A DNA stretch of 64,000 nucleotides from Candidatus Bathyarchaeia archaeon (GTDB lineage: Archaea > Thermoproteota > Bathyarchaeia > Bathyarchaeales > Bathycorpusculaceae). This document shows positions 17,895 through 35,815 of this stretch, piece by piece. Position 1 is the stretch's first letter, and each line of letters starts with the position of its first letter. The notes under the pieces were generated by a model that was given only the letters and a program-made list of their open reading frames with translations, ran no database searches and was not told the DNA's origin. The stretch is from assembly GCA_050010755.1 (NCBI GenBank), contig JBEKKK010000001.1:736001-800000 (forward strand), in the 5' to 3' direction. The position numbers and the translations under genes were made by a program.

Positions 17895-18460
17895 AGGTAA
17901 TCTCCTCCTGCTTCTCCATAAATTTTCGCAGCTAAATCCTTAGTTATCTCTTCCGGTTTCCGAGCGTAGAGCTTGTAGGGCTCGTTTCCCCTCTCAACTA
18001 CCCTGAGGACGTTCCAACTTCCTTCCTGACAAACTTTGACACACTGGGGTTTCCCGTTGCATAAGTCGCAGATTACGATGTGCTTCTCTTTTGGATGCAT
18101 GTGAGGAACCCTGCCTGGACAAGCGCCAAAACACTGTCCACAGGCCGTGCAAGTTTCGTTGTTCACCAGCACCGCACCTGTCTTATTGCTTACTGACAGG
18201 GCTTTCACGGGACATGATTTCACGCAGGGATAGTCTTCGCATTGAGCGCAGAGGTGCGGAAATTCCAGTCCAGGGACAAGCATGAACACCCTCACTCTGG
18301 AAGCATCTGGCCAAATTCGATTTTCATGCGATAGCGAGCAGGCTATCTCGCATCTTCTGCATCCGCTGCATTTAGACAGGTCTCGGGCTATCCATATGGG
18401 TTCTTTTCTAGTCGGCAAACATTGTGCCTCTTGGAAATTCGTTGAATTTTCCTTAGTCAA
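17891..18460 (-). CDS. 4Fe-4S dicluster protein, probable AOR small subunit
   Basis: CSGCRRCEIAC, CAQCEDYPCVKSCP, CTACGQCFGACP, CDLCNGKPQC; overlaps AOR start. Confidence 0.92.
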   Translation of the reverse strand: MTKENSTNFQEAQCLPTRKEPIWIARDLSKCSGCRRCEIACSLSHENRIWPDASRVRVFMLVPGLEFPHLCAQCEDYPCVKSCPVKALSVSNKTGAVLVNNETCTACGQCFGACPGRVPHMHPKEKHIVICDLCNGKPQCVKVCQEGSWNVLRVVERGNEPYKLYARKPEEITKDLAAKIYGEAGGDYL

Positions 18461-18478
18461 TGGTGTGATTTAAGGATG

Positions 18479-18495
18479 GTGTAACATTGTTACAC
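18479..18495. promoter_or_regulatory. perfect palindrome GTGTAACA-T-TGTTACAC, candidate operator
   Basis: 8-1-8 dyad in the divergent region between the Fe-S/AOR operon and endoQ. Confidence 0.5.
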
Positions 18496-18591
18496 TTCAC
18501 AGATTATCCAGCAGTCAGTTCGCACCAAGAAATTTCGCGATAACCTAATAATGTCGAACCTGACAAGGGATGCGGGAGGGCAGAGGGACGC

Positions 18592-19875
18592 TTGAGGGTA
18601 ATAGCCGACTTCCACATGCACAGCCGTTACAGCATGGCGACGAGCGAAAGAATGTGCATCAAGGAGATTAATCGTTTTGCAAAGATTAAGGGTCTAAAGG
18701 TTGTGGGCACGGGGGATTTCACGCATCCGAAGTGGCTTCAAGAGCTGAGTGAGACGCTGGTTCCTGAACCAGATTCAAACCTGTACAAGTCGGTCTCAGA
18801 TGACAATTCGACCGTGCGTTTCATCGTTACGACTGAAGTCAACACCGTCTTTGCAGCCAAGACTGGATTTAAGAAAGTTCACCACGTCATTCTGACGCCG
18901 AGCTTGGAAACCGCGGGACAAATTAATGATAGACTGGCAAAATACGGTAATCTGGCTTCAGACGGCAGGCCAACCCTGGACGTTAACGCGGCGCATCTGG
19001 TTGAGGAGGTCATGGAAGTTTCAGCTGACAACATGGTTTTCCCCGCTCACGCATGGACGCCTTGGTTCGGTATTTTCGGTGCTTTCAGCGGTTTCAACAC
19101 CATCCAAGAATGCTACGAGGACATGGCTAGGCACATCTATGCTTTGGAAACCGGTCTTTCATCAGACCCGCCTATGAACTGGAGGCTGAGCGGCCTTGAC
19201 AGGTTTACGCTGGTTTCGAACAGTGACAGCCACAGTTTCTGGCCGTGGCGCATCGGAAGAGAGGCAAACGTCTTCGAACTTGAGAAGCCAGATTATCATG
19301 AAATGCTGGGTGCCATCCGTACAAAAGATACGGCACGATTAAAGTTTACGATAGAAACAGACCCTGCTTATGGCAAGTATCATTGGACCGGCCACAGAAA
19401 CTGCAATGTGTCGCTCTCGCCGCAGGAGGCAGCGAAGCTTGGAAACATCTGCCCAGTTTGCCGCAGAAACCTCACTAAAGGCGTTGAGCAACGTGTTGAA
19501 GAGCTTGCTGACCGCCCGGCGAATTTTAAGCCTGAAAACACCCCCGGGTTCGTGCGTCTGCTTCCGCTCTCGGAAATCATTGCCACATCATTAGGAGTTG
19601 ATTCACCATCCTCTGAGAAGGTGTGGGGCGTTTACAACCCGCTCATAGAGAGATTCGGGGACGAGTACTCCGTTCTGATTGATCGTTCGAGAGACGAACT
19701 GAGCTCCGTTGCGGGTGAACAGCTGGCCGAGGCAATACTGCGTGTTCGAGACGGGAAGGCCAGGGTTGTCCCTGGTTTCGATGGCGTTTATGGGCAACTT
19801 GTTCTTGATGAGAAGGCGCATGGTCAAATCTTGCCGAAAAGAGTTCAACAGTTGAATCTAAATGATTTCGTATAA
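18592..19875 (+). CDS. endoQ: endonuclease Q (PHP domain, Zn finger, C-terminal PIP box)
   Basis: DFHMHSRYS, GTGDFTHP, PAHAWTPW, ETGLSSD, SNSDSHS, GKYHWTGHRNC...CPVC, PGFDGVYG, QLNLNDF. Confidence 0.9.
   Translation: MRVIADFHMHSRYSMATSERMCIKEINRFAKIKGLKVVGTGDFTHPKWLQELSETLVPEPDSNLYKSVSDDNSTVRFIVTTEVNTVFAAKTGFKKVHHVILTPSLETAGQINDRLAKYGNLASDGRPTLDVNAAHLVEEVMEVSADNMVFPAHAWTPWFGIFGAFSGFNTIQECYEDMARHIYALETGLSSDPPMNWRLSGLDRFTLVSNSDSHSFWPWRIGREANVFELEKPDYHEMLGAIRTKDTARLKFTIETDPAYGKYHWTGHRNCNVSLSPQEAAKLGNICPVCRRNLTKGVEQRVEELADRPANFKPENTPGFVRLLPLSEIIATSLGVDSPSSEKVWGVYNPLIERFGDEYSVLIDRSRDELSSVAGEQLAEAILRVRDGKARVVPGFDGVYGQLVLDEKAHGQILPKRVQQLNLNDFV
19846..19859 (+). repeat. attL core CAACAGTTGAATCT within the endoQ 3' end
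   Basis: identical to 35336-35349; extends to 20/24. Confidence 0.88.
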
Positions 19876-20101
19876 GAAAACAGTTAGATGCTAGTTTCTG
19901 AACCCGCCCTCATTGCAAATGATAACTGCATGTCCGACGTTGCTCCCACTTACCTTCTCAAACATGTAGAGTTTCGTCCTGAATGCGTTTTGAAGTCTTT
20001 CGCGCGCGTACCTGTTTGGTCAAGAACAAGAATCCACTTAGCGAACGATATGGAAAAGACTTTCTATCGAACGAATTCGCATGAAAATGAGGCAAACCGA
20101 A

Positions 20102-20575
20102 TCAACTTGAGTCCACCGTCAGGCTAACCGTCTCAGTGTCAAATCTTGTTGAGTTGAAGTAAAACTCCGCATTTATTGGGTATGTGCTCGTGAGAGCCCC
20201 TCCTGTCGATGTTGGGATGACGGTCAAAGAGTAAGTCGATTGTTGACCAGCATTTAGGCTCATCTGGAAGTATGGCAACCCCTCACTATTAGGAAGCGGA
20301 GAACCATCCTTAAAGAAAGTCAAAGGACTAGTAGTGTTGAATATCAGCATTACGTTGTGCGGCTCAACTGCGTCATTATTCTTGATTGTAAAATTAAATA
20401 GGGCAGATTTATTTACGACCACTTCGCTCGGATTCAAAGAAACACCGCTCACTGTGAATGCCGAAGTTCCCTGAGTAGAATACCACCATGCGACCCCAAT
20501 GATTATACCGACAACAATCAAAACTAGAATTAGGATTCCACCTTTGGCTATTCCACTGTTTGAACGAGAATGCAA
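20102..20575 (-). CDS. membrane-anchored protein with extracellular Ig-like beta domain
   Basis: N-terminal hydrophobic helix, S/T/N-rich beta-strand pattern. Confidence 0.65.
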   Translation of the reverse strand: MHSRSNSGIAKGGILILVLIVVGIIIGVAWWYSTQGTSAFTVSGVSLNPSEVVVNKSALFNFTIKNNDAVEPHNVMLIFNTTSPLTFFKDGSPLPNSEGLPYFQMSLNAGQQSTYSLTVIPTSTGGALTSTYPINAEFYFNSTRFDTETVSLTVDSS

Positions 20576-20651
20576 AATAGTTCTTTCTCCAAGTTGATGA
20601 CACGACAGAGACGCTTTTAAGTTTAACTATAGAGTCAAGGATTCAAAGTCA

Positions 20652-20981
20652 AAAGACAGAAATCTTAAATCTGCACAGCAACAGAGGACAAACTACAGGC
20701 TCAAGAATGAGTAAGGCTTTGCCAGAGAATAGAAAACCATTGAAATGTGACTTTGAGGAATGCCCAGAAATGGTTCAATGGTATAGAAAGTATAAAGGAA
20801 AACTCTGGAAATTATGCACTAAACATGAGGCTTTTATGGCAAGGCAACATCAAGGTCATTCTGTAGACCGTGACCACTTAACCCCAGATGATTGGCGATA
20901 CTTGAGGCAAAAGGATTTAGAAGAAGAAGAGTAGTCTCTAGTCAAGCTGAAAGACAGAAATCTTAAATCTGCACAGCAACA
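20652..20981 (+). repeat. 32-bp exact direct repeat (promoter/leader) in front of two small ORFs
   Basis: AAAGACAGAAATCTTAAATCTGCACAGCAACA at 20652-20683 and 20950-20981; similarity continues to both ATGs. Confidence 0.92.
20707..20934 (+). CDS. small Zn-finger protein (CxxxxC...CxxH)
   Basis: CDFEEC and CTKH; directly behind the repeated leader. Confidence 0.65.
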   Translation: MSKALPENRKPLKCDFEECPEMVQWYRKYKGKLWKLCTKHEAFMARQHQGHSVDRDHLTPDDWRYLRQKDLEEEE

Positions 20982-21005
20982 AAAGACGAACTAGAGGTTC
21001 AACAA

Positions 21006-21392
21006 ATGACATTACCAAACTTGGACGAAGTGCGCTATGCTGTTTCAGATTCAATCAAGACCGTTGAGAATCTAATCGAAAAGCTATCTACTCAAAAATC
21101 TCTAACTCACCAAGAATTTCGTCATGATTACCACTCTATAATGATGGAGCTTCTTCAAATTGAGGATGAAACCCAATTGCTTACTGTAAATGACAAATAC
21201 AGTAAGGGATTTTATAAAATGAAGAAAATCCTTCTTTCGCTGCTTGACATAGACAAAATAGAGAAGAAACACGCAAACGACCACTTCATTTTCTTGGACA
21301 CTCAACTTACGAAAGACATGCGAAAAGACCTAATCAAGTTCTTCAAGAACATCTCCAAGCAGCTTAAACAAGTTCTGAAAACACTCAACTAA
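21006..21392 (+). CDS. hypothetical helical protein
   Basis: 128-aa ORF directly behind the second leader copy. Confidence 0.65.
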   Translation: MTLPNLDEVRYAVSDSIKTVENLIEKLSTQKSLTHQEFRHDYHSIMMELLQIEDETQLLTVNDKYSKGFYKMKKILLSLLDIDKIEKKHANDHFIFLDTQLTKDMRKDLIKFFKNISKQLKQVLKTLN

Positions 21393-21466
21393 AGCTCTTG
21401 TCAAGCTGAAAGCTGAATATGAGAAGACGAAAACTTGGCTGAAGAGCGCGCGCTATAGCATGCATT

Positions 21467-22684
21467 TTAGGCTCCAATGTTCATGAAATCTGCAAGTGAA
21501 GAATTTTTCTGTTCTGTAACCTCTTTCTCAGGATAAGCCTTAGTTACGAGTTTACCTTTGAATGCCTTAGACATCAGGGAGTCCTGCAGTTTAGCGATTT
21601 CTTTGGTTGATATGCCTTGGTTCCCCCTTAAGCTGTTGATTCCTTCAACGATACTCACAAATCGCTCCTGCAAATCCAATCGTGGAAGTGGGATTCGCAG
21701 GTCACCGACTTGTTTAAGGTTCAAATGTAGTCTTGTAGCTCCTCTCTTGATGTTCTCAATTTGCTCTCTAACATAGTCAGTAGATAGCGCATGAACTACA
21801 TAAGTCGGGTTGACCAAATCTTTCCTGAGACGGACCAATGCTTGGTCTTGGTTCATGTTCGCAGGACAGACATCTGCTGTTACTATCGCACACCGTCCCA
21901 AAGTTCCTGCTATGCTAATCACAACGTCATCAGGGTGAAGTTGTGACCGTTTCATTCTTGAGTGAACCGTTTCTGTAATGTAGTCTGCATCATCAAGCAC
22001 AATTCTGAAGTCTTTTATGTTCTTGATGCGAATTATGGGGACTCCGCTGCTCTGATATCTGTCCCCCTTCCAAAGAGGCGACTCACCTTTGGTAATTAAG
22101 GTGCTCACTTCTTTCAGTTTCTTCATGGGTACATTGAAATCATGTGTCTTAGGGTCTCTAAACATTTGCACGAAGACAGCTTGAAGAAGTTTGTTTGTCA
22201 GCAGATTCGCCTGTTTCCTCTTTACAAGAAGGGCGTCAGCTTTTTCAAGAATTCTCACTATCCGTTCTTGGTAATCTAATGGAGGGACGATGATTTTCTT
22301 CCTTTTAAGGAACCTATAATGCCGGCTGTATCCTGCGTTTTCAATGGGTATCCATCGAAGTTGGTAGTAGAAGAACTTGGGAATCAGGATGTTCTTTCTG
22401 ACTCTAATGATTTTGGTTCCGTCTGCACCCACACAAAAAGGAAAATTCACGAATTTGACAATTCTTGTATGGTCACCAAAAATAACTGAGTCCCCTTCTT
22501 TGGGAAAGACTTTGGAAATCTCATCCGAATATCCTGCAATGAACTCTTGCCCTTGGTCAATAATCGGAAACTTTCCCTTCTCTTTGTAGTCAGAACGTTT
22601 TATTTTGATTTTCGAAGGGGTGCTATCTCCTTCTATGCAACTCTCAAAATCTACAATCCTCCAATCCTTTGGCAACGTTGTCAT
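21467..22684 (-). CDS. hsdS: type I R-M specificity subunit
   Basis: LPKDW start, two TRDs each followed by PPLDYQERIV / LPRLDLQERF conserved helices, KAFKGKLV. Confidence 0.95.
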   Translation of the reverse strand: MTTLPKDWRIVDFESCIEGDSTPSKIKIKRSDYKEKGKFPIIDQGQEFIAGYSDEISKVFPKEGDSVIFGDHTRIVKFVNFPFCVGADGTKIIRVRKNILIPKFFYYQLRWIPIENAGYSRHYRFLKRKKIIVPPLDYQERIVRILEKADALLVKRKQANLLTNKLLQAVFVQMFRDPKTHDFNVPMKKLKEVSTLITKGESPLWKGDRYQSSGVPIIRIKNIKDFRIVLDDADYITETVHSRMKRSQLHPDDVVISIAGTLGRCAIVTADVCPANMNQDQALVRLRKDLVNPTYVVHALSTDYVREQIENIKRGATRLHLNLKQVGDLRIPLPRLDLQERFVSIVEGINSLRGNQGISTKEIAKLQDSLMSKAFKGKLVTKAYPEKEVTEQKNSSLADFMNIGA

Positions 22685-24192
22685 TCTATCATCTTTTTCA
22701 ATTCATCAAGGTCTTTCAAAATTTCCTCTTCACTTGTCATTACTTGGTCAATTATCTGAACGGGGTTCTCATAGTCAATTTGAACTTGTTCTATTTCCTT
22801 GTATTGTGAAATTGACAAACTAAAATTATTCTTCGTGATTCTATCAATAGGAACTACGATACTCTGAGTAGCTTCCTTACGTTTTCTGAACATCTCTATA
22901 ATGTTAGGAATGTCGCCTTTGCCATCAATGAAGTCCCTTTTTTGGTCCAGACTGTATCCATCTTTTAGCATTTCATAGAACCAAACATTCTCAGTCTTGC
23001 CACCTTTCACAAATACCAAAACTGCTGTGCTGACTCCCGCATACGGCTGAAACACTCCTGAGGGCATGGATACCACCGCTTCAAGCTGACATTTTTCCAA
23101 CAGCATTCTCCTAGCCTGCACATGAGCATTGGAAGAGCCAAACAAGACACCATTGGGAACAATTACAGCAGCTCTCCCACCGACTCTAAGCAGGTTATAG
23201 AACAACTCCAAGAATAGGAGTTCAGTTTTCGTGGTGGTAAGTTTGAATGCGTCATTGATGTCGCTTTTGTCTATTGACCCTGCAAAGGGTGGATTGGCAA
23301 AAACAATATCATACTGTTGTTTCTGTTCAAACTTTCTGGATAGTGTATCGGCATAGCGGATGTTTGGTCTTTCTATCCCGTGGAGAATCATGTTCATGAG
23401 TCCAATGCGAATCATCGTTGAATCAAAATCAAAACCGTAGAAAGTCTCTCTCTTCAGTAAGTTCCAATGAGCTTTTTCAACTATTCTGTCGCCTACAAGA
23501 TTATGCGCTTTGCCGTCCTCTTCGGTTACAATTATGTCGTTGCTTGTGTATTTTCTGAGGATGTGTTCATATGCCCCGATTAGGAAGCCTGCTGTTCCAC
23601 AGGCAGGGTCACAGACTGTTTGTCCAATGTCAGGGTCAACAAGCTCAACCATCATGCGGATTACGTGTCTTGGAGTCCTGAACTGTCCATTCTTCCCTGA
23701 GGTTTTCAACTCACTCAAGAGGTATTCATAGATGTCTCCTTGAGTGTCTTGGTTTCTTTCCGTGATGTTCATCTCATCAATTATTGCAACCGCTTCCTGT
23801 AGCAGAGAAGCCTTCGGGATGGCAAACATGGCATCTTTCATGTATTGAGAGTAGAGAACGTCATCTCCGTTGTGAAGAGTCTTTATGAAGGGAAAGACCA
23901 CTCCTTGAAAATGCTTGAGCATGTCCTCAGCATTCAGATGCTTCCATTGAGACCACCTGCAGTTTTCGTGCCCTTCAAAGACGGATTTGTGCTGTTCTCC
24001 TCTTGCTGCGGCCCTTTTGGCGTGGATTGCGTCCAAGTCTTCGAGTCTCTTGATGAAAATCAGATAGGACATTTGTTCAATTGCGGTTAGCGGATTTGCT
24101 ATTCCTCCTGACCAAAACCTATCCCAGAGCTTGTTAATCTGCGACTTGAGTTCAGGAGCTAACACGTGTTCCTTTCCTCTCCAATTGAGCAC
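22681..24192 (-). CDS. hsdM: type I R-M N6-adenine methyltransferase
   Basis: GQFRTPRH, DPACGTAGFL (motif I), ANPPF (motif IV); true start probably GTG at 24165. Confidence 0.96.
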   Translation of the reverse strand: MLNWRGKEHVLAPELKSQINKLWDRFWSGGIANPLTAIEQMSYLIFIKRLEDLDAIHAKRAAARGEQHKSVFEGHENCRWSQWKHLNAEDMLKHFQGVVFPFIKTLHNGDDVLYSQYMKDAMFAIPKASLLQEAVAIIDEMNITERNQDTQGDIYEYLLSELKTSGKNGQFRTPRHVIRMMVELVDPDIGQTVCDPACGTAGFLIGAYEHILRKYTSNDIIVTEEDGKAHNLVGDRIVEKAHWNLLKRETFYGFDFDSTMIRIGLMNMILHGIERPNIRYADTLSRKFEQKQQYDIVFANPPFAGSIDKSDINDAFKLTTTKTELLFLELFYNLLRVGGRAAVIVPNGVLFGSSNAHVQARRMLLEKCQLEAVVSMPSGVFQPYAGVSTAVLVFVKGGKTENVWFYEMLKDGYSLDQKRDFIDGKGDIPNIIEMFRKRKEATQSIVVPIDRITKNNFSLSISQYKEIEQVQIDYENPVQIIDQVMTSEEEILKDLDELKKMIE

Positions 24193-27011
24193 ATAGTTGT
24201 ATTACTTCCTTCAAATCTTCATCTTCAAACAATGGAATAGGAGCGTTGACTCCAAAATTGGTGAAAGGAGGCTCAAACAAGTCACCATAATCAATATGAT
24301 GCTTCTTGGTAAAAACTGTCTGTATAGTTCTCAGAAAGTTCACTTGGTCAGCATTAAGATAGTTCTTCTCAATCATGAACGTCTTAAAAGCATCTTCAAT
24401 CATCTTCTTAGGTTCAGGAAAACTGTACAAGCCTAAAACGTTCTTGATGAACTGCACAAGTGTTCCCCTGTTTTGTTTGAAGGCTTTCTGCAACACTTCT
24501 TCCGTGATGTAGAGCTCAGGACTATTCAGAGTCAACTCAAGATTTACCAAGTCTTCCTCGTTCAAGGCCTCATTATTCTTTATCTTTAGAATTGTCGGAT
24601 TTTTATCAGCAAGCTGCCTAATCCTCTCTTCAACTTTCTGAATGTAGGTTTTCACATACTCATGAGAAGGCAACGGTCCATACGCAATGATTTCTCTCTC
24701 TTTTATCCAATCATCAATATCCAATTTGATAGTAGGTCTTGGTTCAGAAAGCTTGTATCGCATCAACGGACCAAATTCTCTACCAAGCATCTGAGCATCT
24801 TCATAGGATATGCTTGTCCAAAAATCAGCACGGAGAACCCTGTTTAGCAAATGTTGCTTTTCCTTTACTGCATTAATCGTTGTTGGCAGACAGTTCAAGT
24901 ATTCTCCTATAGAGTCCCGAAGTGCTTCAATCTCTACTTGACTCTTGTGCAAGATTGCCAAACTCAACTGCTCAACTTTAAGCATGAAATAGGCTTCATC
25001 AGGATTGACATCAGACTTGTACTTCATAAGCGGAGCAATCTTTCCCTTCAAAAACTCCAACTGATTAACGCCTATCATATCCCAAAAATCAGGAGAAAGC
25101 GCCTTCTCCAACTCCCTCATATGTTCCTTAACAGAAGCTGAATCCACAGGCAAGCTATTCATATCAGCAGTCAGTTTTCCCTTGACCTGCTCAGACCTCA
25201 CATCTTTGACACTTAGGAAATAGTCCATTTGCTGCAATCTTGCAATGAAAATCTTTATAGGAACAGCCTCAGCAGGCTTCTCCTCTTTCCCAGGAGGATG
25301 CATCTTGAACCATTCAAAGTTCTTCCAAAAATCAAAAATCAAAAATCAAAAAATACTCTTTCTTACGGTTTGGCAACCAATGCCTATGAAGCTCTTTACA
25401 GGTTTGGTCATTTCTTGTACCTCTGCCAATCATCTGCCAAAACCTAATCTTGGAAAACACAGGCTTGGCAAAAGCAAGATTGCACACTTCGGGAACATCT
25501 ATCCCCGTATCAAGCATATCAACCGAAATGGCAACCTTCGGAAAATCATCATTTTTGAATTCGCTAATCAGCTGCTGTGCTCTGCTGTCTTCTGAAACTA
25601 TGATTCTTGTGAGCCTTCCTTTATACTGCGGATAGAGTTTTTCAAAGGCTTCCCACAGCCGTTTAGCATGCTTCTTTGAGACGGCAAATATGATTGATTT
25701 TGCAGGCAGAGTTCCTGTTTCATCCATCACGCAGTTGTCCATGAACTCTTTGACTATGGCTTCATTCGTGCCTACTACAACTACCTTTTTCTCAATGTCT
25801 GTGCCCTCAAAATTGAGTTCTTCCTCCTCAATCCCCAATTCCTCTAAAACTTTCTTCTTTACCTCGTCAGGCACGTCTTCAGGTTTTATACCTTCAATCT
25901 GAAAATAAGTTTGGGCAGCATAAACTTTGTAATCAACAAGGTAGCCCTCAGCTACAGCTTGTTCATAAGTGTAAAGATATGTTGGCACACCACCTTCACA
26001 TTCAAAAAACCTGAAGGTGTCTCTCTCTATCAATTCTGAAGGAGTGGCTGTCAAGCCTATTTCCATAGCGTCAAAATATGTGAAGACCTCTTTCCACTTA
26101 TTGTATATGGACCTGTGAGCTTCATCTGAAATGATAACGTCAAAATCACCGCAAGAGAATTGCTGATAACACTCCATGAAAGTCTGTATTGTGGACGCGT
26201 AAAGACGTGGGAACTTCTGCACGTCTCCTGAAAAAACCTTCACCTTGGATTCATTTGGAAAGAACGTTTTGAACCCCAAATCTCCGTAAGCCTGGTCTCT
26301 TAACGCTTTTCTGTCCGCAAGAAAAAGGATTCTCTGTCCTCTATTTGCCCTCAGCAGAACATCAATGAGTGCCATTGCCACACGTGTCTTGCCCGTGCCC
26401 GTTGCTTGAACAATGAGGAACTTTCTTTTCCCTTTCTCGATTCCTTCAAGAACTCTCTTAACCGCTTCAATCTGGTATGGTCTGTCAACAATTTCCTTCT
26501 TAATAGGCACATCTTGAAAGTCTTTCTTTGAATAATTTTGGAACCGTATCCTCTCAAGCGAGTTCCTGTCATGGAATCCACTGACCATTCGGGGATTCTC
26601 AAACGGCTTATTCCAAAACCAAATCTCATAACCATTAGTCAAAAAGATGAATGTATCCTTGCCTGTCTGCTGCCTAATATCTGCAACATAACCTTCAGCC
26701 TGCCTCTGCCCCAAAATAGGGTCTTTGGATGTCCTCTTGACTTCAACAACCGCCAAAGGAAGCCCTTTTGAATCCAACAACAGATAATCAGCATAAGCAC
26801 TATCCTCAGGATTCTTCAACGTCTCCGGCATCGTCTTGTACTTGCCATAGTTGAAGTCGGACTGTTTTGTATCGACTTCTTCAATGACTTTAGTTCTGTC
26901 TTTTGAGCCCCAACCACATCTTTTCAGCAATTTATCTATCTTTTCTCTACGAGTTCTATATTCAGACAGACCTGCCATTTCTGTCACTGATTCAGTCTGC
27001 AAATATGTCAC
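24152..27011 (-). pseudogene. hsdR: type I R-M restriction subunit (EcoEI/EcoAI-like), split by a frameshift at a 7-bp tandem repeat
   Basis: N part: ADYLL..VVEVK nuclease, ATGTGKT, DEAH, QMIGRGTR. C part: EcoEI-type C-terminus. Junction is (AAAAATC)3 at 25327-25347. Confidence 0.92.
25327..25347. repeat. (AAAAATC)3 simple sequence repeat in hsdR
   Basis: removing one unit restores EYFLIFDFWKNFEWF. Confidence 0.95.
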
Positions 27012-27119
27012 AAGATAGGCTATAGCATTTGTGCAGGTAAAGGTAGGCGCGCACTAACCAATCTATCAATGTAAATAAGACCTTTTAAGGTAGTACGTGT
27101 TTAACGATTCTGAGAAAGC

Positions 27120-28295
27120 ATGTTCTATACTGGATTTGACTCCACAAAATTAGCAAAAAAGTTCATCCCTTTAGAAGATTTCCTTAACAAGCCGCAGGAA
27201 TCTGACCAAACGAACGCTGAGGAACTGAACTCAGAATCTCCTAAACCTGAGCAACTCAAAGAGGAACCCATTGATTCCGAAGAGGCAAATGCAATGCCCA
27301 AGTTGCCTATTGTATTAAAGGCATTAATCGGAGCGTCAGTCACAACGCAAGACTCAGATTTTGACGAACATTATAAAACTACTCTTGGCAACGTATTTGA
27401 AAGACACGATATTCGACTGGAAAAAACGATTTACAAAGGCGCACACATAGTGAAGCAGATAGGCGCAAACTTTGACCAAGTATTTACTGAAATCTTGAAC
27501 GAAATAGGACCAGCTCTCGCTCATATAGACCTTTATTTTGCCACATATCCTAAACCGTTCGTTTCGATTTTTGGCAAGGCTCAAGGAGAGCGATTACGTC
27601 CTTTGGAATACATAGAGAAACATCAAAATGGATTTGCGCATGCGTGTGCATGGTGGCATTGGAGAACTTACTCTAGAGCTGAAACAGAATATGAATATCA
27701 TATTGACCATTTTGAAGGTAGGGCAACACCAGCATGGGCTGAAATGGAATCTAGCAAAGTGAACATAAAATCATACTACAATGGATCTGAATGCGACTGT
27801 CTTATTTCCTTTGCTGACCTTATCTTGAAAGCATTAGACATATTCCATTTTGGAACTATTGACTACCGAAGCATCTCTCAACCAATAAGGAAGAGAGCTA
27901 GAACCTTCGCCCTAACTCAAAAAATAAAGAGCTACGATTTAGCGAAATATGATTGGACAATAAAAGCAACAGTTCCTGAGTTGCCACTAGACATAAACCT
28001 CAATCGCTATGTGAAGCATCCAATATATTTCATTGCATGGACTCCAACATTACCAAGAAAAACAGTAAAAGTGAGTTTTGAATGGAGTAAATTATACAAC
28101 TCTATAATTCAGAAAGCGATTAAGGCAAAAGGGTGCGTGAAATTTCTGGACTTTGACAAAGACATGACTTTCTGGGATACAACCGATTTCATCATACCTT
28201 GGGAAGCCCCTGACGAAGAACATGTGAGGCTTCTATTAAGCATGGGATTTGAAAGGATGCCAAAAATACTAAAATCATCCGATATAATAACATAA
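27120..28295 (+). CDS. DUF3800-like RNase H-fold protein (tentative)
   Basis: N-terminal YTGFDS, central YHIDH, and GSECDCLISFADLI resembling the DUF3800 S..IQ.AD motif. Confidence 0.5.
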   Translation: MFYTGFDSTKLAKKFIPLEDFLNKPQESDQTNAEELNSESPKPEQLKEEPIDSEEANAMPKLPIVLKALIGASVTTQDSDFDEHYKTTLGNVFERHDIRLEKTIYKGAHIVKQIGANFDQVFTEILNEIGPALAHIDLYFATYPKPFVSIFGKAQGERLRPLEYIEKHQNGFAHACAWWHWRTYSRAETEYEYHIDHFEGRATPAWAEMESSKVNIKSYYNGSECDCLISFADLILKALDIFHFGTIDYRSISQPIRKRARTFALTQKIKSYDLAKYDWTIKATVPELPLDINLNRYVKHPIYFIAWTPTLPRKTVKVSFEWSKLYNSIIQKAIKAKGCVKFLDFDKDMTFWDTTDFIIPWEAPDEEHVRLLLSMGFERMPKILKSSDIIT

Positions 28296-28638
28296 CAAAA
28301 TAATGCGTTTTCACGCAAGGAGTGCACCCTTTGGGCTTAGAGTGTACCAAGTATACAGCGTTTATAAAGTCGTATTTAACACTTGTGGAGCACGGTTCTA
28401 TTTGTCATCGTCTCGCATGTGTCCCACGTCTGTCCAACGCGTGTCTCACATCTATATTACACTTGTTAGATGGACGACAATTATCTTATGGTTATTCTTT
28501 TCTTAATGCATTTGTTCCCATTCTTCCCGAGTCAAGACGCCTTTTCCTCCCGCTAGGCCTGAGAGTATAGTATCCAGTGGGTCTAATTCTAGCGCGCGCG
28601 GGCTCACCGCGTTAACACTGGTGACGAGCATTGATTGT

Positions 28639-29390
28639 TGACTGTTCAAAACCTGTTCTATAATATAGAGAGAACGCATATTGAACATCTAGGGTAGAGA
28701 ATTTGAGAGTGCATTCCAAGAGCTACCACAGCGATGCTTTAAACCTTCGGACACGATGCCAGGCTTGAAGTACTCGATTGGATGAAGTTCTTCCCGCTTA
28801 CACCAGAAATTGGTAAACCTGTCACGTGGATTCTGCAGCAGTTCATCAGCAGTCGCGTAGCCGATGAGGTGAACTGAGTTTTCATGAGCCGCGTTCAAAC
28901 CCAACACGTAAAAGCTTTCTTTGAGGGTGGTTTCTTTGAACGTTAAACCCCATTTGTTTTTGACGCGTGTTTTTACGTTGTACGGCTGGGCGCCTATGAA
29001 TCCATCTGGCTGATGCGGCCACACATTCACATCGTTGAACTTGAACACGAGACGCCAGGGTTCACCGAGCAACGTGTGAACTGCAATTTCACCGAAATAA
29101 CCGACCCAGTGGTTCCTAAGAATGTTAGAGAAGTGTTCATGCGTGAGTGCATTATCGTGTATAGCTTTCACTAAAGCTTCCCACGAGGTTTGAGGAGGCA
29201 GCTTCATCTCCTCAAGCAGATGCTTCAAGTCTTTATGCATGTTAGACACGCCCAGCTTCGTCAGTTCACGTATGTGCTGCTGAACGCCGCTTTCACTTTC
29301 AAAGATTTTTCGGATGTTTACCGCAATCATGCTGCTCCACCTGCTCAATATTTGTTCCTTATGTATTATAGAACAGGTTTTGAACAGTCA
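28639..29390. repeat. 752-bp module bounded by inverted repeats (27 bp perfect, 42/49 extended)
   Basis: TGACTGTTCAAAACCTGTTCTATAATA at 28639-28665 and its reverse complement at 29364-29390. Confidence 0.93.
28689..29330 (-). CDS. PD-(D/E)XK restriction-endonuclease-fold protein
   Basis: GYFGEIAV...QPDGFI...YNVKT motif; ATG at 29330 preceded by AGGTGG. Confidence 0.65.
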   Translation of the reverse strand: MIAVNIRKIFESESGVQQHIRELTKLGVSNMHKDLKHLLEEMKLPPQTSWEALVKAIHDNALTHEHFSNILRNHWVGYFGEIAVHTLLGEPWRLVFKFNDVNVWPHQPDGFIGAQPYNVKTRVKNKWGLTFKETTLKESFYVLGLNAAHENSVHLIGYATADELLQNPRDRFTNFWCKREELHPIEYFKPGIVSEGLKHRCGSSWNALSNSLP

Positions 29391-31652
29391 GCCTCGAACC
29401 CTCCTTATCGTGCTGACGCTAACCCCGTATTTTTCAGCGAAAACTTTATGTCTAATCTTAGAATCTGCAGTCTTTATCTCAGCAACCTCTTTTTCTGTAA
29501 GCTCACGCGGTCTTCCAGACTCCTTCGCTGGGAACTGCGCACGATAAGCCTCGTCAACGATGTCGTACGGCGTCGTGAAAGTGTTCTCTGCAAAGACGTT
29601 AACGTCGCGGTCGAGTTTGCGCTTGCCGTCGAACAACCAGCTGATCTTCTTTTTCTTGTGTTGAACTGAGTTTAGCGGAATGTTGTCGTGTATAAAGTCC
29701 ATCAAGCCTGTCAGCCGAGTCGTCTCGCTCTCAAGGATGACCTCTTTGCGTGCAGCTAAGTTTTCACGTATCATTCTTTCAAAGTTAAGTTTCTTTTCGT
29801 CCGAAGAGCCTGTCACCGCGATGCCTCCTTGTGCAGCGTGAACCAGCTTGCCCTGATACCATGCTGCATAACACCGATTTCTTCCAATCCAGAGCTCATC
29901 TATCGACGCTTCACGCCGTATGCCGCTGTAGAACTTCGCTAATTCTTTTGATAGGTTGCTTTGCTCAAACATCGGGTCACCGAGCCAGAAGCCGCCGTCT
30001 GTCGAGATAGTTAAACAACGTTCACCTTGATTGATAGCCCACCCTGCCATGCTGCGAGCTCTACCCACTATCAGCGACGCCCATTCGATGTTCCAACTAC
30101 CACCTACCTCGCTGCGCGTGTACATCGCACGCATCGCCTTCTTCTTGCCGTATTTTCTGAACTCCTCGCTTTGCAAGCCGCTCACGTGCAACAGCCGGGC
30201 AATATCTTCAGCCGTATGACTCGGCTTCATGTAAGCGAAGCGGCCGATGATGCCCACCATCTTTGCCTTTTCAATCTGATAGTCGGTGCTGTCGCGTTTA
30301 CCGCGCGCTTCAAGCTCAGTCTTCTTCTTCAGCATATCAACAAGGAACGGTCTCAGCTCATTTTCAACTTCGTTCTCCAGCGGCATAAAACCGTAGCCTC
30401 TGAACTTCGTAACATTCACACCCAGAGTCAGCGCCTGTCGAAGCTCAGCCAACGTGCAGTACGATAAGCCTCGTAATGGAAACATCAGTTTCGGATAATA
30501 GTTTACTTGAACAGGCAGCGTCGGGTACATCGTTGCATGAGGAAACTCGAACTCTACCTCGCAGAAGCCTTCAGCGCCTTCTTTAACATCCTGCAGCGTA
30601 ATCGGTTTGTACTCCGTGTCCTCGTTACTCAGAGGTTGCAGAATACCCGCTATGATGTAAAGAGATTTGAAGTCATAATAAGAGGCTTGAACGTGCGGGA
30701 AATATCCTCGTGCGAAAGCCTGATTGTTACCTCCCCAATACGACATTACGGCGAGAAGTCGTTCGTTCAAGTCGCCGCTGAAAGTTAACGTTTTCGCAAC
30801 ATGCTCGCGCCACGAGCCATTCTTCATCTTCTGGTTTATCTGTATACGTTCTTCTTCAGCTTTACATGGCAGCTTCTTCATCGTGCGCCGAAACGCTGCC
30901 ACCGTAATCGACGTGTACGTCGCGTAGCAGTGAGGGTCCAAGTTAAGTGGTTTATAAGAATCAACGATGCTGCGCCAAGCCTCGACTGCGATTTCAGCGT
31001 CTCGTACGGCGTAAGCCTCGTAGACCTCATGATGCCGTTGCAGCAACTCTTTCATGTGCAGCTTCCAATAGCTGTCATCTTTACCGTCAGCCTCGATTCG
31101 CAGCTTCGCGTAACCGATGGCAGCACCTACCTTGTCCAGAGATGTTTTCATGTGACCGAACAGATCAGCAATGTGTAGCGTGAAGTCTGAGCCTGAAACG
31201 CTGAATCGTCGTTGCCACATAACCGCCTTGTTAAACTCGCTGACCTTCGGCTTCACACGCACCGCGCGCCCGGCTTCAACGCTCTCATATTCGTCGTAAA
31301 AATCCTTGACCTTAGACAGTTCAGCAATCGCGAAATGCGCTATTAGAAAGATGTGCCTGCGCGGTTCGACATCCTGCTCGGCGAGGAATTTCAAAGTGTA
31401 ATCGAGAAGTTCGAGGGAGGAGATGCCTTCACGTTTGCCGATGTAATACACTTTTGAACGTCCGCGACCCAGTGAAAACTGCACGCTCAATAGTTCACGG
31501 TCAGCGCTGCTGTCCTCTGGCGTGAACTCAGTGTCGAAGCCGATGTCAATGTAGTCTTTCAACACTCGGCCTCTTTTCAATGGCGTGAGAACATGCTTCA
31601 AATCTTTCAGTTTAAGGTTTCCAACATCTTCTTTTCTCATACAAAAAACCAA
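29388..31652 (-). CDS. family B DNA polymerase, primer-independent (piPolB)-like, with C-terminal HTH
   Basis: ExoI FDTEF, ExoII AHFAIAEL, ExoIII YAVRDA, YWGGNNQ.F..G, motif A DFKSLY, FEFP...YPTLPV...LMFP..G, motif C ISTDG; tail FAEKYGVSVSTIRRV. Confidence 0.85.
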   Translation of the reverse strand: MVFCMRKEDVGNLKLKDLKHVLTPLKRGRVLKDYIDIGFDTEFTPEDSSADRELLSVQFSLGRGRSKVYYIGKREGISSLELLDYTLKFLAEQDVEPRRHIFLIAHFAIAELSKVKDFYDEYESVEAGRAVRVKPKVSEFNKAVMWQRRFSVSGSDFTLHIADLFGHMKTSLDKVGAAIGYAKLRIEADGKDDSYWKLHMKELLQRHHEVYEAYAVRDAEIAVEAWRSIVDSYKPLNLDPHCYATYTSITVAAFRRTMKKLPCKAEEERIQINQKMKNGSWREHVAKTLTFSGDLNERLLAVMSYWGGNNQAFARGYFPHVQASYYDFKSLYIIAGILQPLSNEDTEYKPITLQDVKEGAEGFCEVEFEFPHATMYPTLPVQVNYYPKLMFPLRGLSYCTLAELRQALTLGVNVTKFRGYGFMPLENEVENELRPFLVDMLKKKTELEARGKRDSTDYQIEKAKMVGIIGRFAYMKPSHTAEDIARLLHVSGLQSEEFRKYGKKKAMRAMYTRSEVGGSWNIEWASLIVGRARSMAGWAINQGERCLTISTDGGFWLGDPMFEQSNLSKELAKFYSGIRREASIDELWIGRNRCYAAWYQGKLVHAAQGGIAVTGSSDEKKLNFERMIRENLAARKEVILESETTRLTGLMDFIHDNIPLNSVQHKKKKISWLFDGKRKLDRDVNVFAENTFTTPYDIVDEAYRAQFPAKESGRPRELTEKEVAEIKTADSKIRHKVFAEKYGVSVSTIRRVRG

Positions 31653-31811
31653 CTTTTTCTTTCGCTCACACAGGGGGGATTTTGTTCCATTGTGTAACTA
31701 TTCGCGCGTATTTATTTAAACGTTACTTATTATTAAAAGTAACTCAAAAATGAATACTAATGATAAATCTTAAATATAAAGTAACGCGTATGTACCCCTG
31801 AGGACAAAGCA

Positions 31812-32210
31812 ATGCTGAGAAAGAGTGAAGTCAACTTTGTCGAGAAAAACAAAGGCCATAATGGAGTCATGATGGCTTCGGATAAACAAAAAATGTACAG
31901 GATTAGAAAGAAAGCGCAGAAAACTATTGAAGAACTGACTTACCTTGCCCAGAATCTCCCGGAGAAACAGCTTAAGCAAATTTTTAGTGAAGCTGCTCTT
32001 ATTCCGTTCTGCAAGGCGATTCTCCACAGGCCGGAAGCTGACAAGAAGCGCATTCGCAAAATCATCCTGGGGCTTATAGGGGACGTCTTTGGCGACGAGG
32101 AGTTTGCTCTGAGAATGGTTCCTGAAGACGCAAGAAGGCTGATTTCGAACACTGATAACCCGTTGGAACTCGTTGAGAGTTTGTTTTTCGCTTCAATGTA
32201 TTCAGAATGA
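31812..32210 (+). CDS. hypothetical basic helical protein divergent from the polymerase
   Basis: 132-aa ORF behind an AT-rich region with a TATA-like box. Confidence 0.65.
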   Translation: MLRKSEVNFVEKNKGHNGVMMASDKQKMYRIRKKAQKTIEELTYLAQNLPEKQLKQIFSEAALIPFCKAILHRPEADKKRIRKIILGLIGDVFGDEEFALRMVPEDARRLISNTDNPLELVESLFFASMYSE

Positions 32211-32464
32211 CTGCGCTTGCAGGTCAGACCATACTGGTACCTCAGAAGTGGGCTTCTCAGGAAATCAATTGAATAGTTCTTAGCGCGTGCTATATGAGTT
32301 ACGCAAAACCTTTTTTTCTCGACTCTGTTGAATGCCTATCCTTCTTGAGTGTGAGTAACTCGTAACCGATGTAATCATGATAACTACTTGGATTTGATTC
32401 GTGTTTGCTCCCTGCCGCGCGTGCTGAAAAGGCAGATAAGGTTGGTTAACCTATCTTCTGCAGG

Positions 32465-33868: not shown

Positions 33869-33966
33869 AAAACCTCAAAAAGTTACTGCGCATTTCATCT
33901 TTAGCGCGCGCTGCATTTTCTGCCTAGGTTGCAACCCAAGCACAGAGAGAACCTAGGGGGCTAGGG

Positions 33967-35268
33967 TCAGTGTTCGACCACAATCTTCCCGCTGGCCAGG
34001 GACGTGACCACTTTCCAGCCATTCTTTAGGCATTCAGTCAACTCTGTTTCGGTTACAAGTTTCTGACAATGTTCGCCGTCGGGGCAATCTTCTTTCTGCT
34101 TATTCACCTGTCCCTTGGGCCGCTTGGCGCGGAGGACTTTGCCCACGTTCTCAGCGTCTCGTAACTGAATCCCTGCCCGCTTTGCTGCGTCACGTTGGTC
34201 AGGTGATAAGCTCTCCTTGAACTTTTCCAAGGCCTTGAGTCTCTCTGAGAACTCAAACGTTACCGTCGGTATCTCACTTGTAAATTCCAAAATCTGAACT
34301 GCCTCAGCGAACTTGCTCCGCAGCTGGTCAATCGCTGGCCTTGAATATGGAGCCTCTTCGCCCCGGACTTTTCGGCCTCTGATTTTCCTGGCCCAGTTTG
34401 GAGGCATTCGGATTTCTTCCATCGCTGTGTTTACGTAGCGTCTTGCATCATGCCAATTAAATGTGACACCGGCTTCTTTTGCCAAGCTCCACATCAGTTT
34501 GCCCATATGACCGTATTTGAGCGGGCCGTATGGAGATTGCGCTGAAAGAAAGATGTGGTCCTCAGGTGTAAGTCTTCTTCTCATTCTTGATTCGACCCAT
34601 TCTTTATAGTTTAACAAGTCGCGTTTGGCTTCGGGCGTGAGGAAGGTTATCTGTCTAACGTCTTTGTATCTTCCGATTCCATGCCCCTTTAAGAGCTCAG
34701 GAGGGATGTTAATGCATGGCAAGTCAATTTTTTCCCATCCTTCTTCAAGGTGTTTCCATTGAATCCGCGAAATAGTTTCTTTCGCGATGGCTGTGCTGCA
34801 CACGAAGGTTATGAGTGATTTGTCCCTTGGATTGAGAGCCCAGTTCCAAAGCTTGCGCAAGTCGGCTTTCCGAGGCATGTTGTACGGTCTCACTTTTTCA
34901 ACATTCAATGCGCCCGAGGCTTTGGCGAGGTCGATGTAGTTGTGCTTGAAGAAACTCTTGACTGCAGTGATTAGATGAAATTTCACAGCGTTCGTGAAAC
35001 CCACATTCTCTGTTGACACAAGCTCGTCCAGCAACTTCTCAACTTCCTTGTTTGAGGTTTCCATTTTCAGCAGCTCAGATGGTGTTTTTGCGGCCCATTC
35101 GCAGAACCTATAGAGACTGAAGGCGTTCATCGTCTTGTCTTGGAGTTTGGCAAGCCAACGTTTCACTTCTGGGTACTGGTCTGCCCACAGAGGAATAACA
35201 TTTGAGCTTTTCATCTTCTCAGCTACCTCGGTTGGCTTCTTGCCTTTCGGTCCTACATTACTCGTCAT
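33967..35268 (-). CDS. tyrosine recombinase/integrase
   Basis: RDKSLI, KGHG, HDARR (HxxR), APYSRP catalytic Tyr, C-terminal GWKVV domain seen in archaeal integrases; ~70 bp from attR. Confidence 0.88.
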   Translation of the reverse strand: MTSNVGPKGKKPTEVAEKMKSSNVIPLWADQYPEVKRWLAKLQDKTMNAFSLYRFCEWAAKTPSELLKMETSNKEVEKLLDELVSTENVGFTNAVKFHLITAVKSFFKHNYIDLAKASGALNVEKVRPYNMPRKADLRKLWNWALNPRDKSLITFVCSTAIAKETISRIQWKHLEEGWEKIDLPCINIPPELLKGHGIGRYKDVRQITFLTPEAKRDLLNYKEWVESRMRRRLTPEDHIFLSAQSPYGPLKYGHMGKLMWSLAKEAGVTFNWHDARRYVNTAMEEIRMPPNWARKIRGRKVRGEEAPYSRPAIDQLRSKFAEAVQILEFTSEIPTVTFEFSERLKALEKFKESLSPDQRDAAKRAGIQLRDAENVGKVLRAKRPKGQVNKQKEDCPDGEHCQKLVTETELTECLKNGWKVVTSLASGKIVVEH

Positions 35269-35335
35269 CCCAGACGCCTCGAAAAATGATGTACGCAGCC
35301 GAGTACTTATAGTTGCTTACTGTTTTCCTATACAA

Positions 35336-35349
35336 CAACAGTTGAATCT
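35336..35349 (+). repeat. attR core followed by the displaced endoQ tail (QQLNLTDFTF-stop)
   Basis: CAACAGTTGAATCT TACCGACTTCACTTTTTGA. Confidence 0.88.
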
Positions 35350-35460
35350 TACCGACTTCACTTTTTGATGTCTGGTCCATGCTTTTGCTGTATGTGTGGT
35401 GAACAAGTCTACGACAAGACTTATTAAATCGTAAGACGTGCGATTATTCTGTGATACCGA

Positions 35461-35799
35461 ATGGAGACAGTGACACAGCAAAAGTCCAGCAACAATGATG
35501 CCGTCCTGGCAGTAATAGACAGGGTTCTGAACCAAGTTTTCGGGAAAGAAGCCACGATTCTGATATTCAGGTACATGGAACAAAACTACTCCTTGAACCG
35601 CAGTGAAGTCAGCGACAAGATTGAATTGTTCGCACAGGGATTAGAGGACTTCCTGAGATCGGGCGCAACCATAATCGAGAGAAAGATTCTCGAAGACATA
35701 ACCTCCGATTGCAACCAGCTTCGCAGAATGGAACTTGAGAACGTTGAGGACGAACCGAGTTTTGTCGCTCAAATGAAAATAGCCATGCACAGATCTTAA
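35461..35799 (+). CDS. small archaeal hypothetical protein (DUF3227-like)
   Basis: VFGKEATILI...FAQGLEDFL..GATIIERKIL pattern. Confidence 0.6.
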   Translation: METVTQQKSSNNDAVLAVIDRVLNQVFGKEATILIFRYMEQNYSLNRSEVSDKIELFAQGLEDFLRSGATIIERKILEDITSDCNQLRRMELENVEDEPSFVAQMKIAMHRS

Positions 35800-35815
35800 T
35801 CATTTTTCATTTAAT

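Follow-up and report, generated by a model that had tools for sequence, protein, structure and literature searches.

Prophage e14 is described as sitting in icd in such a way that the gene extends into the prophage and a C-terminal icd pseudogene lies at the far end (PMC13626634). For thaumarchaeal integrated elements, a survey reports 14 of 68 in the 3′-distal parts of genes for proteins; in NitEve-E2, which has a 13-bp attachment (att) site, an alternative stop codon derived from the element reconstitutes the open reading frame (ORF) (PMC6563490). Here we analyzed a comparable locus in a 64,000-nt stretch from a Candidatus Bathyarchaeia archaeon (assembly GCA_050010755.1, contig JBEKKK010000001.1, positions 736,001 to 800,000; in the following called the window). 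It contains endoQ, the gene for the DNA repair enzyme endonuclease Q (EndoQ), followed by an element of 15.5 kb. We consider it very probable that this element integrated site-specifically into the endoQ codons of the PCNA-interacting protein (PIP) box and supplied a replacement tail.

With e14 as described, the locus shares a target in the 3′ part of a protein-coding housekeeping gene, an element that supplies the gene end, and an original C-terminal fragment that is left behind. In contrast, e14 has a bacterial host, a much longer replaced stretch and an integrase of a different family, whereas here only about 4–5 codons are replaced and these form a protein-protein interaction motif. Phage 21 reportedly integrates in Escherichia coli icd as well. 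The thaumarchaeal elements, as far as they are described in the survey, resemble the present one in being archaeal, in their short att sites and in an element-borne stop codon that rebuilds the ORF, but the host here belongs to the Bathyarchaeia and the swapped residues constitute a clamp-binding motif. The text of that survey, its supplementary table aside, does not name EndoQ as a target (PMC6563490). The principle is not new, since integration at protein-coding 3′ ends is already known for a minority of elements. The first-pass annotation of the window had proposed such a target, a protein-coding clamp-binding motif instead of a tRNA gene, and this was borne out; the window has 0 tRNA genes, and an Rfam scan of positions 18000–37000 yielded no RNA family. 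A loosely set literature search listed no paper that mentions “endonuclease Q”; the supplementary tables of surveys were outside its scope, and we do not claim that the case is unreported. New here are the EndoQ PIP motif as target, the host class, the integrase family, a carrier with a polymerase related to primer-independent family B DNA polymerases (piPolBs), and population evidence for both alleles.

The principal features of the integration site, in window coordinates, are:
18592..19875, plus strand: endoQ in its hybrid form, 427 aa; the body and PIP positions 1–4 come from the host, N-D-F-V and the stop codon from the element
19846..19859, plus strand: attL core copy; covers the Q-Q-L-N codons plus bases 1 and 2 of L; placed by a contig joint with 14 letters fitting either side
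19860..19875, plus strand: endoQ end supplied by the element; the Leu codon’s third base followed by N, D, F, V and TAA
19860..35335, no strand: integrated element; 15,476 bp from core to core, 15,490 bp if one core is counted
35336..35349, plus strand: attR core copy; placed by the core search in window and genome and by junction contigs
35350..35368, plus strand: displaced native endoQ end; third base of Leu, T-D-F-T-F and TGA, the gene body gone

The ORF at 18592–19875 is endonuclease Q. It matches PfuEndoQ (5zb8) with an e-value of 1.8e-63 over residues 3–422 (phmmer against PDB), and the NCBIfam model TIGR00375 with an e-value of 2.2e-63 and 214.9 bits, under the curated cut-off of 326.6. 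The core, CAACAGTTGAATCT (14 bp), occurs in the window at 19846–19859 and 35336–35349 only, with one mismatch allowed, and two or more matches were obtained in 0 of 100 shuffles. Two copies are also all that the whole genome of 2,186,690 bp contains, with 0 matches for the reversed control pattern. The left copy closes the 427-aa ORF (...QQLNLNDFV-stop), and the right copy is in frame with ...QQLNLTDFTF-stop without a gene body upstream. The positions of the copies as well as both translations agree with the first-pass annotation. The element has a GC content of 0.434 versus 0.485 in the remaining window. A promoter and terminator scan at attL, of a bacterial type not applicable to archaea, gave nothing.

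In the PIP-like C-terminal motif of EndoQ, integration replaces TDFTF-stop by NDFV-stop, in line with the annotated swap of the repair enzyme’s last residues. In the hybrid, the motif (Qxxhxxaa) is QLNLNDFV, and in the native protein QLNLTDFT(F); the prediction that QxxLxxF is kept both integrated and excised holds for the hybrid end, Q-x-x-L-x-D-F, as well as for the native end with TDFTF. EndoQ was present in 37 of the 41 genomes searched (the window’s own included), and we examined the loci of 29 relatives. In 28 of these 29, the C-terminus carries Q-x-x-[LIMV]-x-x-[FWY], with Asp at motif position 6 and Phe at position 7 in 27 of the 28. The tail ends one residue past the aromatic in 21 of the 28, as it does in the hybrid, and position 8 is occupied by M (8), L (5), T (4), F (3), W (3), V (2), I, C and S (1 each), and is non-aromatic in most relatives. 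The hybrid QLNLNDFV-stop retains Q1, L4, D6, F7 and the commonest tail length.

This likeness is hard to obtain by accident: when random 19-mers of the element were set behind the core, x-D-F and a stop within three codons resulted in 575 of 2,000,000 draws (2.9e-4). Because random 19-mers restore the tail so rarely, its likeness reflects ancestry or selection and not chance. The 10 bases after the left core are identical to the attB of two relatives (G002 and G004) at 8 of 10 positions, and to the window’s own remnant at 6 of 10. In the attachment site of the element (attP), about 24 bp of the endoQ end therefore seem to be imperfectly copied, and it is this copy that restores the reading frame as N-D-F-V-stop.

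To the right, the element is followed by host genes:
35461..35799, plus strand: conserved gene of 112 aa without a known family, used as host-flank marker; directly after endoQ in relatives (tblastn)
35816–37324, strand not given: tldD, Pfam TldD/PmbA match
37311–38675, strand not given: pmbA, Pfam TldD/PmbA match

Upstream, endoQ is neighbored by genes for a 4Fe-4S protein and an aldehyde:ferredoxin oxidoreductase. The order ferredoxin-endoQ-112aa-tldD is conserved among the relatives: endoQ is followed directly by the 112-aa gene in 20 of the 29 loci and by tldD instead in four more, so that one of the two lies at most 1.5 kb downstream in 24 of 29. The remaining five have neither gene within 1.5 kb of endoQ, and the ORFs that follow endoQ there resemble ordinary host genes. 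The suggested survey of other endoQ 3′ ends for islands accordingly found none in the 29 relatives examined. In the same-genus genomes, the 112-aa gene starts about 100 bp after endoQ in 4 of 4. According to the first-pass annotation, endoQ of relatives lacking the element should end in QQLNLTDFTF and abut the gene at 35461. Three relatives (G002, G003, G004) match this exactly: their EndoQ ends in QQLNLTDFTF-stop, identical in protein sequence to the remnant at 35336–35368, and their attB carries the exact core. A fourth, G001, ends in QQSNLTDFSF-stop. The endoQ of G001 (L028) matches in two pieces that overlap around residue 75 in different frames, due to a frameshift or an error in the draft assembly. 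In DNA alignments of these attB regions with the two junctions, host homology ends exactly with the core: at its left edge in the right junction, at its right edge in the left one. The boundaries hence map to the 14-bp core and not elsewhere.

Both alleles are found in nature. The window stretch is present in public peat and wetland metagenomes, and we mapped the contigs of four runs on positions 18000–37500. A contig of 1,994 nt and depth 15.3 from a 2024 peat metagenome of a separate study (X9) covers 19198–19845 and continues with 35336–36681. At its joint between 19845 and 35336 there are 0 other letters, 15,490 bases are skipped, and 14 letters fit either side. This contig is the unoccupied attB of a near-identical strain, and with it the attB part of the proposed att-site mapping succeeded to the letter. 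The absent depth over the element in X9 was not used alone; the joining contig is the evidence. For the occupied allele, contigs from a 2020 peat metagenome of a further study (X3; records 13 and 15) cross both junctions without differences.

These contigs also bear on the chance that an unrelated low-GC contig was joined into endoQ during assembly. The window does come from a metagenome-assembled genome with a given contamination of 4.4%. The X3 contigs, however, were assembled separately and cross both junctions with 0 other letters, a metagenome contig of 306 kb is identical over 21,299 nt, although it may stem from the same source, and the anatomy of repeats and tails is that of a recombination product. 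Because of the independent junction contigs, we regard an assembly chimera as excluded, its residual probability being negligible.

Both ends of the element carry inverted-repeat arms:
19870..19887, no strand: left inverted-repeat arm, 18 nt; includes the new endoQ stop codon
35316..35333, no strand: right inverted-repeat arm, 16/18 complementary to the left arm

The single other match of the left arm in the window is the reverse-complemented one at 35316–35333 with 2 mismatches, and two or more matches were found in 0 of 100 shuffles. The right end is ordered arm, 2 nt, core, and the left end core, 10 nt, arm. Joining them would yield an attP with the order right arm, 2 nt, core, 10 nt, left arm, in which the arms would lie 26 nt apart; they would flank the core in the excised circle with the geometry that the first-pass annotation had claimed. 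The dyad of this predicted attP lies near the 3′ end of the core. An overlap region of 6–8 bp at the dyad would fall almost wholly within the core identity, and strand exchange must fall inside the 14-bp core.

We propose the following scenario. A tyrosine recombinase would recombine the attP of the element with the last endoQ codons as attB, exchanging strands inside the 14-bp identity that encodes Q-Q-L-N-L and thereby PIP positions 1–4. As the element side of attP would be a look-alike of the remaining gene end, the integrated state keeps a complete endoQ with NDFV-stop, and the original TDFTF-stop is stranded at the other end. The 18-nt arms around the core position are likely binding sites of the integrase, which is encoded beside the right junction and which presumably catalyzed the event. 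The exact cleavage positions probably lie around the dyad, and the element may still excise today.

The same ends might be read differently, as those of a casposon-like self-synthesizing transposon with the 14-bp repeat as target-site duplication, the arms as terminal inverted repeats, the polymerase as the enzyme that replicates the element, and the recombinase as cargo or in another role. Like Family 1 casposons, the element has a PolB gene, is bounded by a direct repeat of some 14 bp with inverted repeats close to each end, and is located at the 3′ end of an archaeal protein gene. Unlike in these, we found no Cas1 or transposase in the 14 element ORFs (Pfam, e-value of at most 0.01) or in eleven of them (NCBIfam and PHROGs). 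Moreover, the arms are not terminal but 10 nt and 2 nt off the core, the tyrosine recombinase gene occupies the canonical position on the junction side, and directly behind the left core, 10 nt are similar to the native gene end (8/10 to the attB of G002 and G004) and restore the motif, so that the element end mimics the target gene, as expected of an attP and not of a transposon end. We therefore judge a casposon-like origin to be very improbable.

The recombinase gene of the element is the following:
33967..35268, minus strand: integrase, a divergent tyrosine recombinase of 433 aa, intact; its 5′ end faces the right core 67 bp away

A Pfam scan of this ORF gave no match, NCBIfam a weak XerA match (e-value 6.7e-4), and PHROGs the integrase phrog_216 (e-value 1.5e-5). 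At a maximum e-value of 0.001, 453 homologs were identified; among the 120 listed, PF00589 is present in 9, and a few bear the name integrase or XerD in their source records. An AlphaFold2 model based on 22 sequences reached a pLDDT of 79.5, and Foldseek matched it over both domains (310–330 columns) to archaeal XerA (5hxy/4a8e; e-value 1e-6, probability 1.00) and further to Brujita Int, Cre, lambda Int and XerH. As modeled, the protein has the two-domain fold of a tyrosine recombinase, core-binding and catalytic. H273, R276 and Y308 are invariant in 22 sequences of the family, and in a MAFFT alignment H273-x-x-R276 and Y308 coincide with HSLR and AYSKP of a PF00589-positive recombinase from the same genome. 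A search of PDB sequences with the family profile and hhalign against one XerA-like protein gave nothing useful. Family members are also extended at the C-terminus by about 100 aa, in which C-x-D-G-x-H-C is conserved and a small beta domain (G-W ... S-G) is present, and a similar C-terminal stretch is present in another recombinase of the same genome (L079).

Since a TATA-like box lies between the right arm and the start codon of int, we infer that the int promoter is probably located wholly inside the element. The gene is a single 433-aa ORF that covers 93–100% of its homologs. SSV-type integrases are likewise archaeal tyrosine recombinases of integrative elements, but their attP is described as lying inside int, which is split on integration (PMC7253208); here attP is upstream and int is intact, and the element is therefore not of the SSV type.

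For the targets of related integrases, we collected homolog loci: 22 within the order (in 17 of 300 other genomes), 12 from GTDB, 1 from a metagenome and 1 from IMG/VR. ARAGORN detected no tRNA gene on these 22 + 12 + 2 loci, and none turned up on the 38 loci scanned overall. In seven of the related loci (L054–L059, L065), a co-oriented gene ends some 40–280 bp upstream of the integrase, encoding CofD, a ribophorin-like protein, a 2-oxoacid oxidoreductase beta subunit, a cytidine deaminase, a nucleotidyltransferase, an eRF1/Pelota-like protein and an LPG-synthase-like membrane protein; in others the integrase’s neighbor is divergent, as in the window. As a lead, this hints that the family generally uses the ends of protein genes. 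Direct repeats of at least 12 nt between the integrase-proximal 400 nt and the downstream DNA (10–40 kb) were limited to 12–13-mers at chance level in the related loci, and neither the search for a second copy of the gene end in one genome nor tblastx between two elements with the same neighbor mapped a boundary. The IMG/VR relatives of the integrase are distant only. One of them, a homolog of 41% identity, is located near the start of a 32.7-kb contig classed as viral (L068) and adjoins a second, divergently oriented PF00589 recombinase of 529 aa.

Several observations weigh against a site-specific integration by this enzyme with a functional exchange of the tail. The integrase is not among the three PF00589 places of the genome. 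In the MAFFT alignment, on which these two assignments depend, the column of the first catalytic Arg is occupied by Ala162, after which Lys163 is invariant, and that of His/Trp by Arg299. With PF00589 not reached and two catalytic columns atypical, the activity of the integrase is a putative one. None of the 22 + 12 + 2 homolog loci lies at endoQ, the 112-aa gene or tldD, and an integrase homolog was found in none of the 30 endoQ loci, those of the 29 relatives among them; the target specificity is hence common to no relative seen. As to the second half of the proposed att-site mapping, the circle junction, attP, was not seen among the contigs, which are unable to show rare forms. The type I restriction-modification (R-M) gene hsdR of the element is split, which may indicate decay. 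Finally, the hybrid tail has Asn at position 5, which occurs in 0 of 28 natural motifs, and Val at position 8, which occurs in only 2 of 28.

The missing circle junction, the two ORFs of hsdR and the unusual residues at two catalytic columns would all fit an integration that is real but left an immobile relic, the two alleles being old segregating variants. Against this, the empty allele shows no difference from the window in its flanks (648 and 1,346 nt), as would be expected if the event were recent. Neither the integrase nor the PolB ORF is truncated, their closest homologs giving query coverages of 96% and 99%. As the atypical integrase residues are invariant in 22 members, they represent a family trait and not decay, and the 7-nt repeat in which hsdR is broken could act as a switch that is reversible. 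We think it unlikely, albeit worth keeping in mind, that the element is such a relic.

The Asn at position 5, together with the longer native tail of the genus (TDFTF), would be compatible with a replacement tail that is inert or harmful. EndoQ would then be uncoupled from PCNA, and the likeness would reflect only the ancestry of attP from the endoQ of another host. In Thermococcales, the EndoQ PIP box has been shown experimentally, with a KD of 55 nM, and the protein lacking it is reported to lose PCNA binding and stimulation (PMC4858679). In the hybrid, Q1, L4, D6 and F7 are kept, the tail has the commonest architecture with one residue after F, and Val8 is natural in 2 of 28. We modeled the complex of the genome’s single PCNA with EndoQ residues 385–427. 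The model scored 0.76, the best control 0.00; 51 of 78 solved complexes attained this mark, as did 2 of 108 mismatched pairs. Contact agreement between runs was at least 58% and the partner pLDDT at least 45. The modeled interface joins EndoQ 417–427 with PCNA 43–50, 127–131, 229–230 and 246–253, and thus places the hybrid tail in the PIP pocket of the genome’s PCNA. Complexes of PCNA with PIP peptides are textbook, abundantly solved structures. Because of this abundance, the passing model attests to the likeness of the hybrid tail to a PIP box and not to binding, and we take it as support only. The hybrid tail may still bind PCNA, and an inert or harmful tail appears rather improbable to us.

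As a site-specific integration into the PIP codons, the locus would be a natural case of a mobile element that lands in a short functional protein motif while repairing this very motif, and a natural tail-swap experiment on the EndoQ-PCNA interaction. Its occupied and empty alleles are both available from public peat metagenomes. For the Bathyarchaeia, for which, to our knowledge, no genetic tools exist, it further provides an integrase family that is new and large (453 matches in the protein search) along with a defined attB/attP pair.

Besides the integrase, the element encodes a DNA polymerase:
29388..31652, minus strand: family B DNA polymerase (PolB) of 754 aa; phi29-like fold; helix-rich C-terminal tail

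Pfam DNA_pol_B_2 matches this protein with an e-value of 2.7e-5, below the cut-off. Its structural model (pLDDT 82.8) had phi29 DNA polymerase as best Foldseek match (2pyj; e-value 2.4e-14, TM 0.65 on the target), with archaeal PolBs next. In an alignment of 17 sequences, ExoI D40/E42, ExoIII Y214/D218, D327...S-L-Y332 and K462 are retained. The PolC motif reads T-I-S-T-D-G, its first Asp being replaced by Ser, and the KTRG position reads G-R-N-R-C-Y, with Arg alone in common and without the KH pair. The motifs SxTTDG and KH-x8-KTRG are described as signatures of primer-independent PolBs (PMC5695915). The only named relatives of the polymerase, at 22–28% identity, are Enterobacter and Leclercia proteins, which have SxTTDG and KH-x8-KTRG, and proteins of small plasmids from Staphylococcus and Fusobacterium. 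Among KTRG-bearing proteins, the best match has an e-value of about 1e-17; ExplorePipolin calls piPolBs with a curated HMM at an e-value below 1e-50. The sequence searches gave no PDB match and no phage record, and distant relatives only in IMG/VR. The family is present in 3 of 300 other genomes of the order and may be an archaeal sister group of the bacterial piPolBs. About 45 close homologs were found in metagenomes, several of them on contigs of 15–22 kb; the closest share 75–80% identity and come from contigs of 16–32 kb. The last approximately 50 residues are helix-rich and resemble a helix-turn-helix.

Pipolins, as they are described (PMC5695915, PMC11551731), combine a phi29-like PolB with a tyrosine recombinase, flanking direct repeats and R-M or other defense cargo, and the module layout of the present element is the same. 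The first Asp in PolC is replaced here, albeit by Ser (I-S-T-D-G, compared with SxTTDG in piPolBs). Unlike pipolins, the element has an archaeal host, a protein-coding target and a polymerase of only 22–28% identity with R-N-R at KTRG and without KH, which by its sequence fails part of the piPolB definition. According to Mateo-Caceres et al., 9 piPolBs were found in about 13,000 archaeal assemblies, and 99.8% of the delimited pipolins are located at the 3′ ends of tRNA or tmRNA genes (PMC11551731). A delimited archaeal element with a piPolB-related polymerase would thus represent a class reported to be almost absent from archaea. It is a long shot, but the element could be the first precisely delimited, pipolin-like self-replicating element of archaea, with an integrase that lacks the canonical first Arg and targets the ends of housekeeping genes, and with a tail exchange that could retune the coupling of EndoQ to PCNA. 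If this were true, retuned uracil- and hypoxanthine-directed nicking at forks could favor a damage-tolerant, PolB-driven replication of the element.

The cargo includes a type I R-M system:
21467–22684, minus strand: hsdS; Pfam Methylase_S, e-value 3.2e-21; PADLOC Specificity_I, e-value 8.9e-78
22681–24192, minus strand: hsdM; Pfam N6_Mtase, e-value 5.8e-65; PADLOC MTase_I, e-value 6e-171
24152..27011, minus strand: hsdR in two ORFs (25332–27011 and 24152–25342); PADLOC REase_I PDLC03047, profile 236–704 and 719–1076

The break in hsdR lies inside a perfect 7-nt tandem repeat of 3.9 copies (25326–25352). The first ORF’s stop codon and the second ORF’s start both fall within this repeat, and the frames of the two ORFs differ by one. 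The arrangement resembles a slipped-strand phase-variation switch in its off state, and no length variants were seen among the mapped contigs.

Two further ORFs are without a family match. For the first, at 32465–33868 (467 aa), there is a weak Atlas lead to HEPN/ApeA-like proteins (score 0.90, 15% of cluster members), and for the second, at 27120–28295 (391 aa), one to DUF8203/DUF3800. The element may therefore carry defense cargo beyond the R-M system.

An exact direct repeat of 29 nt is located at 20655–20683 and 20953–20981, each time about 25 nt upstream of the start codon of a small ORF (20707–20934 and 21006–21392). It is part of a unit of approximately 60 nt, which has no match in Rfam, has kin at 18 other places in the genome and reaches high depth in peat metagenomes. 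This unit could be a shared promoter or leader, or the boundary of a small mobile cassette.

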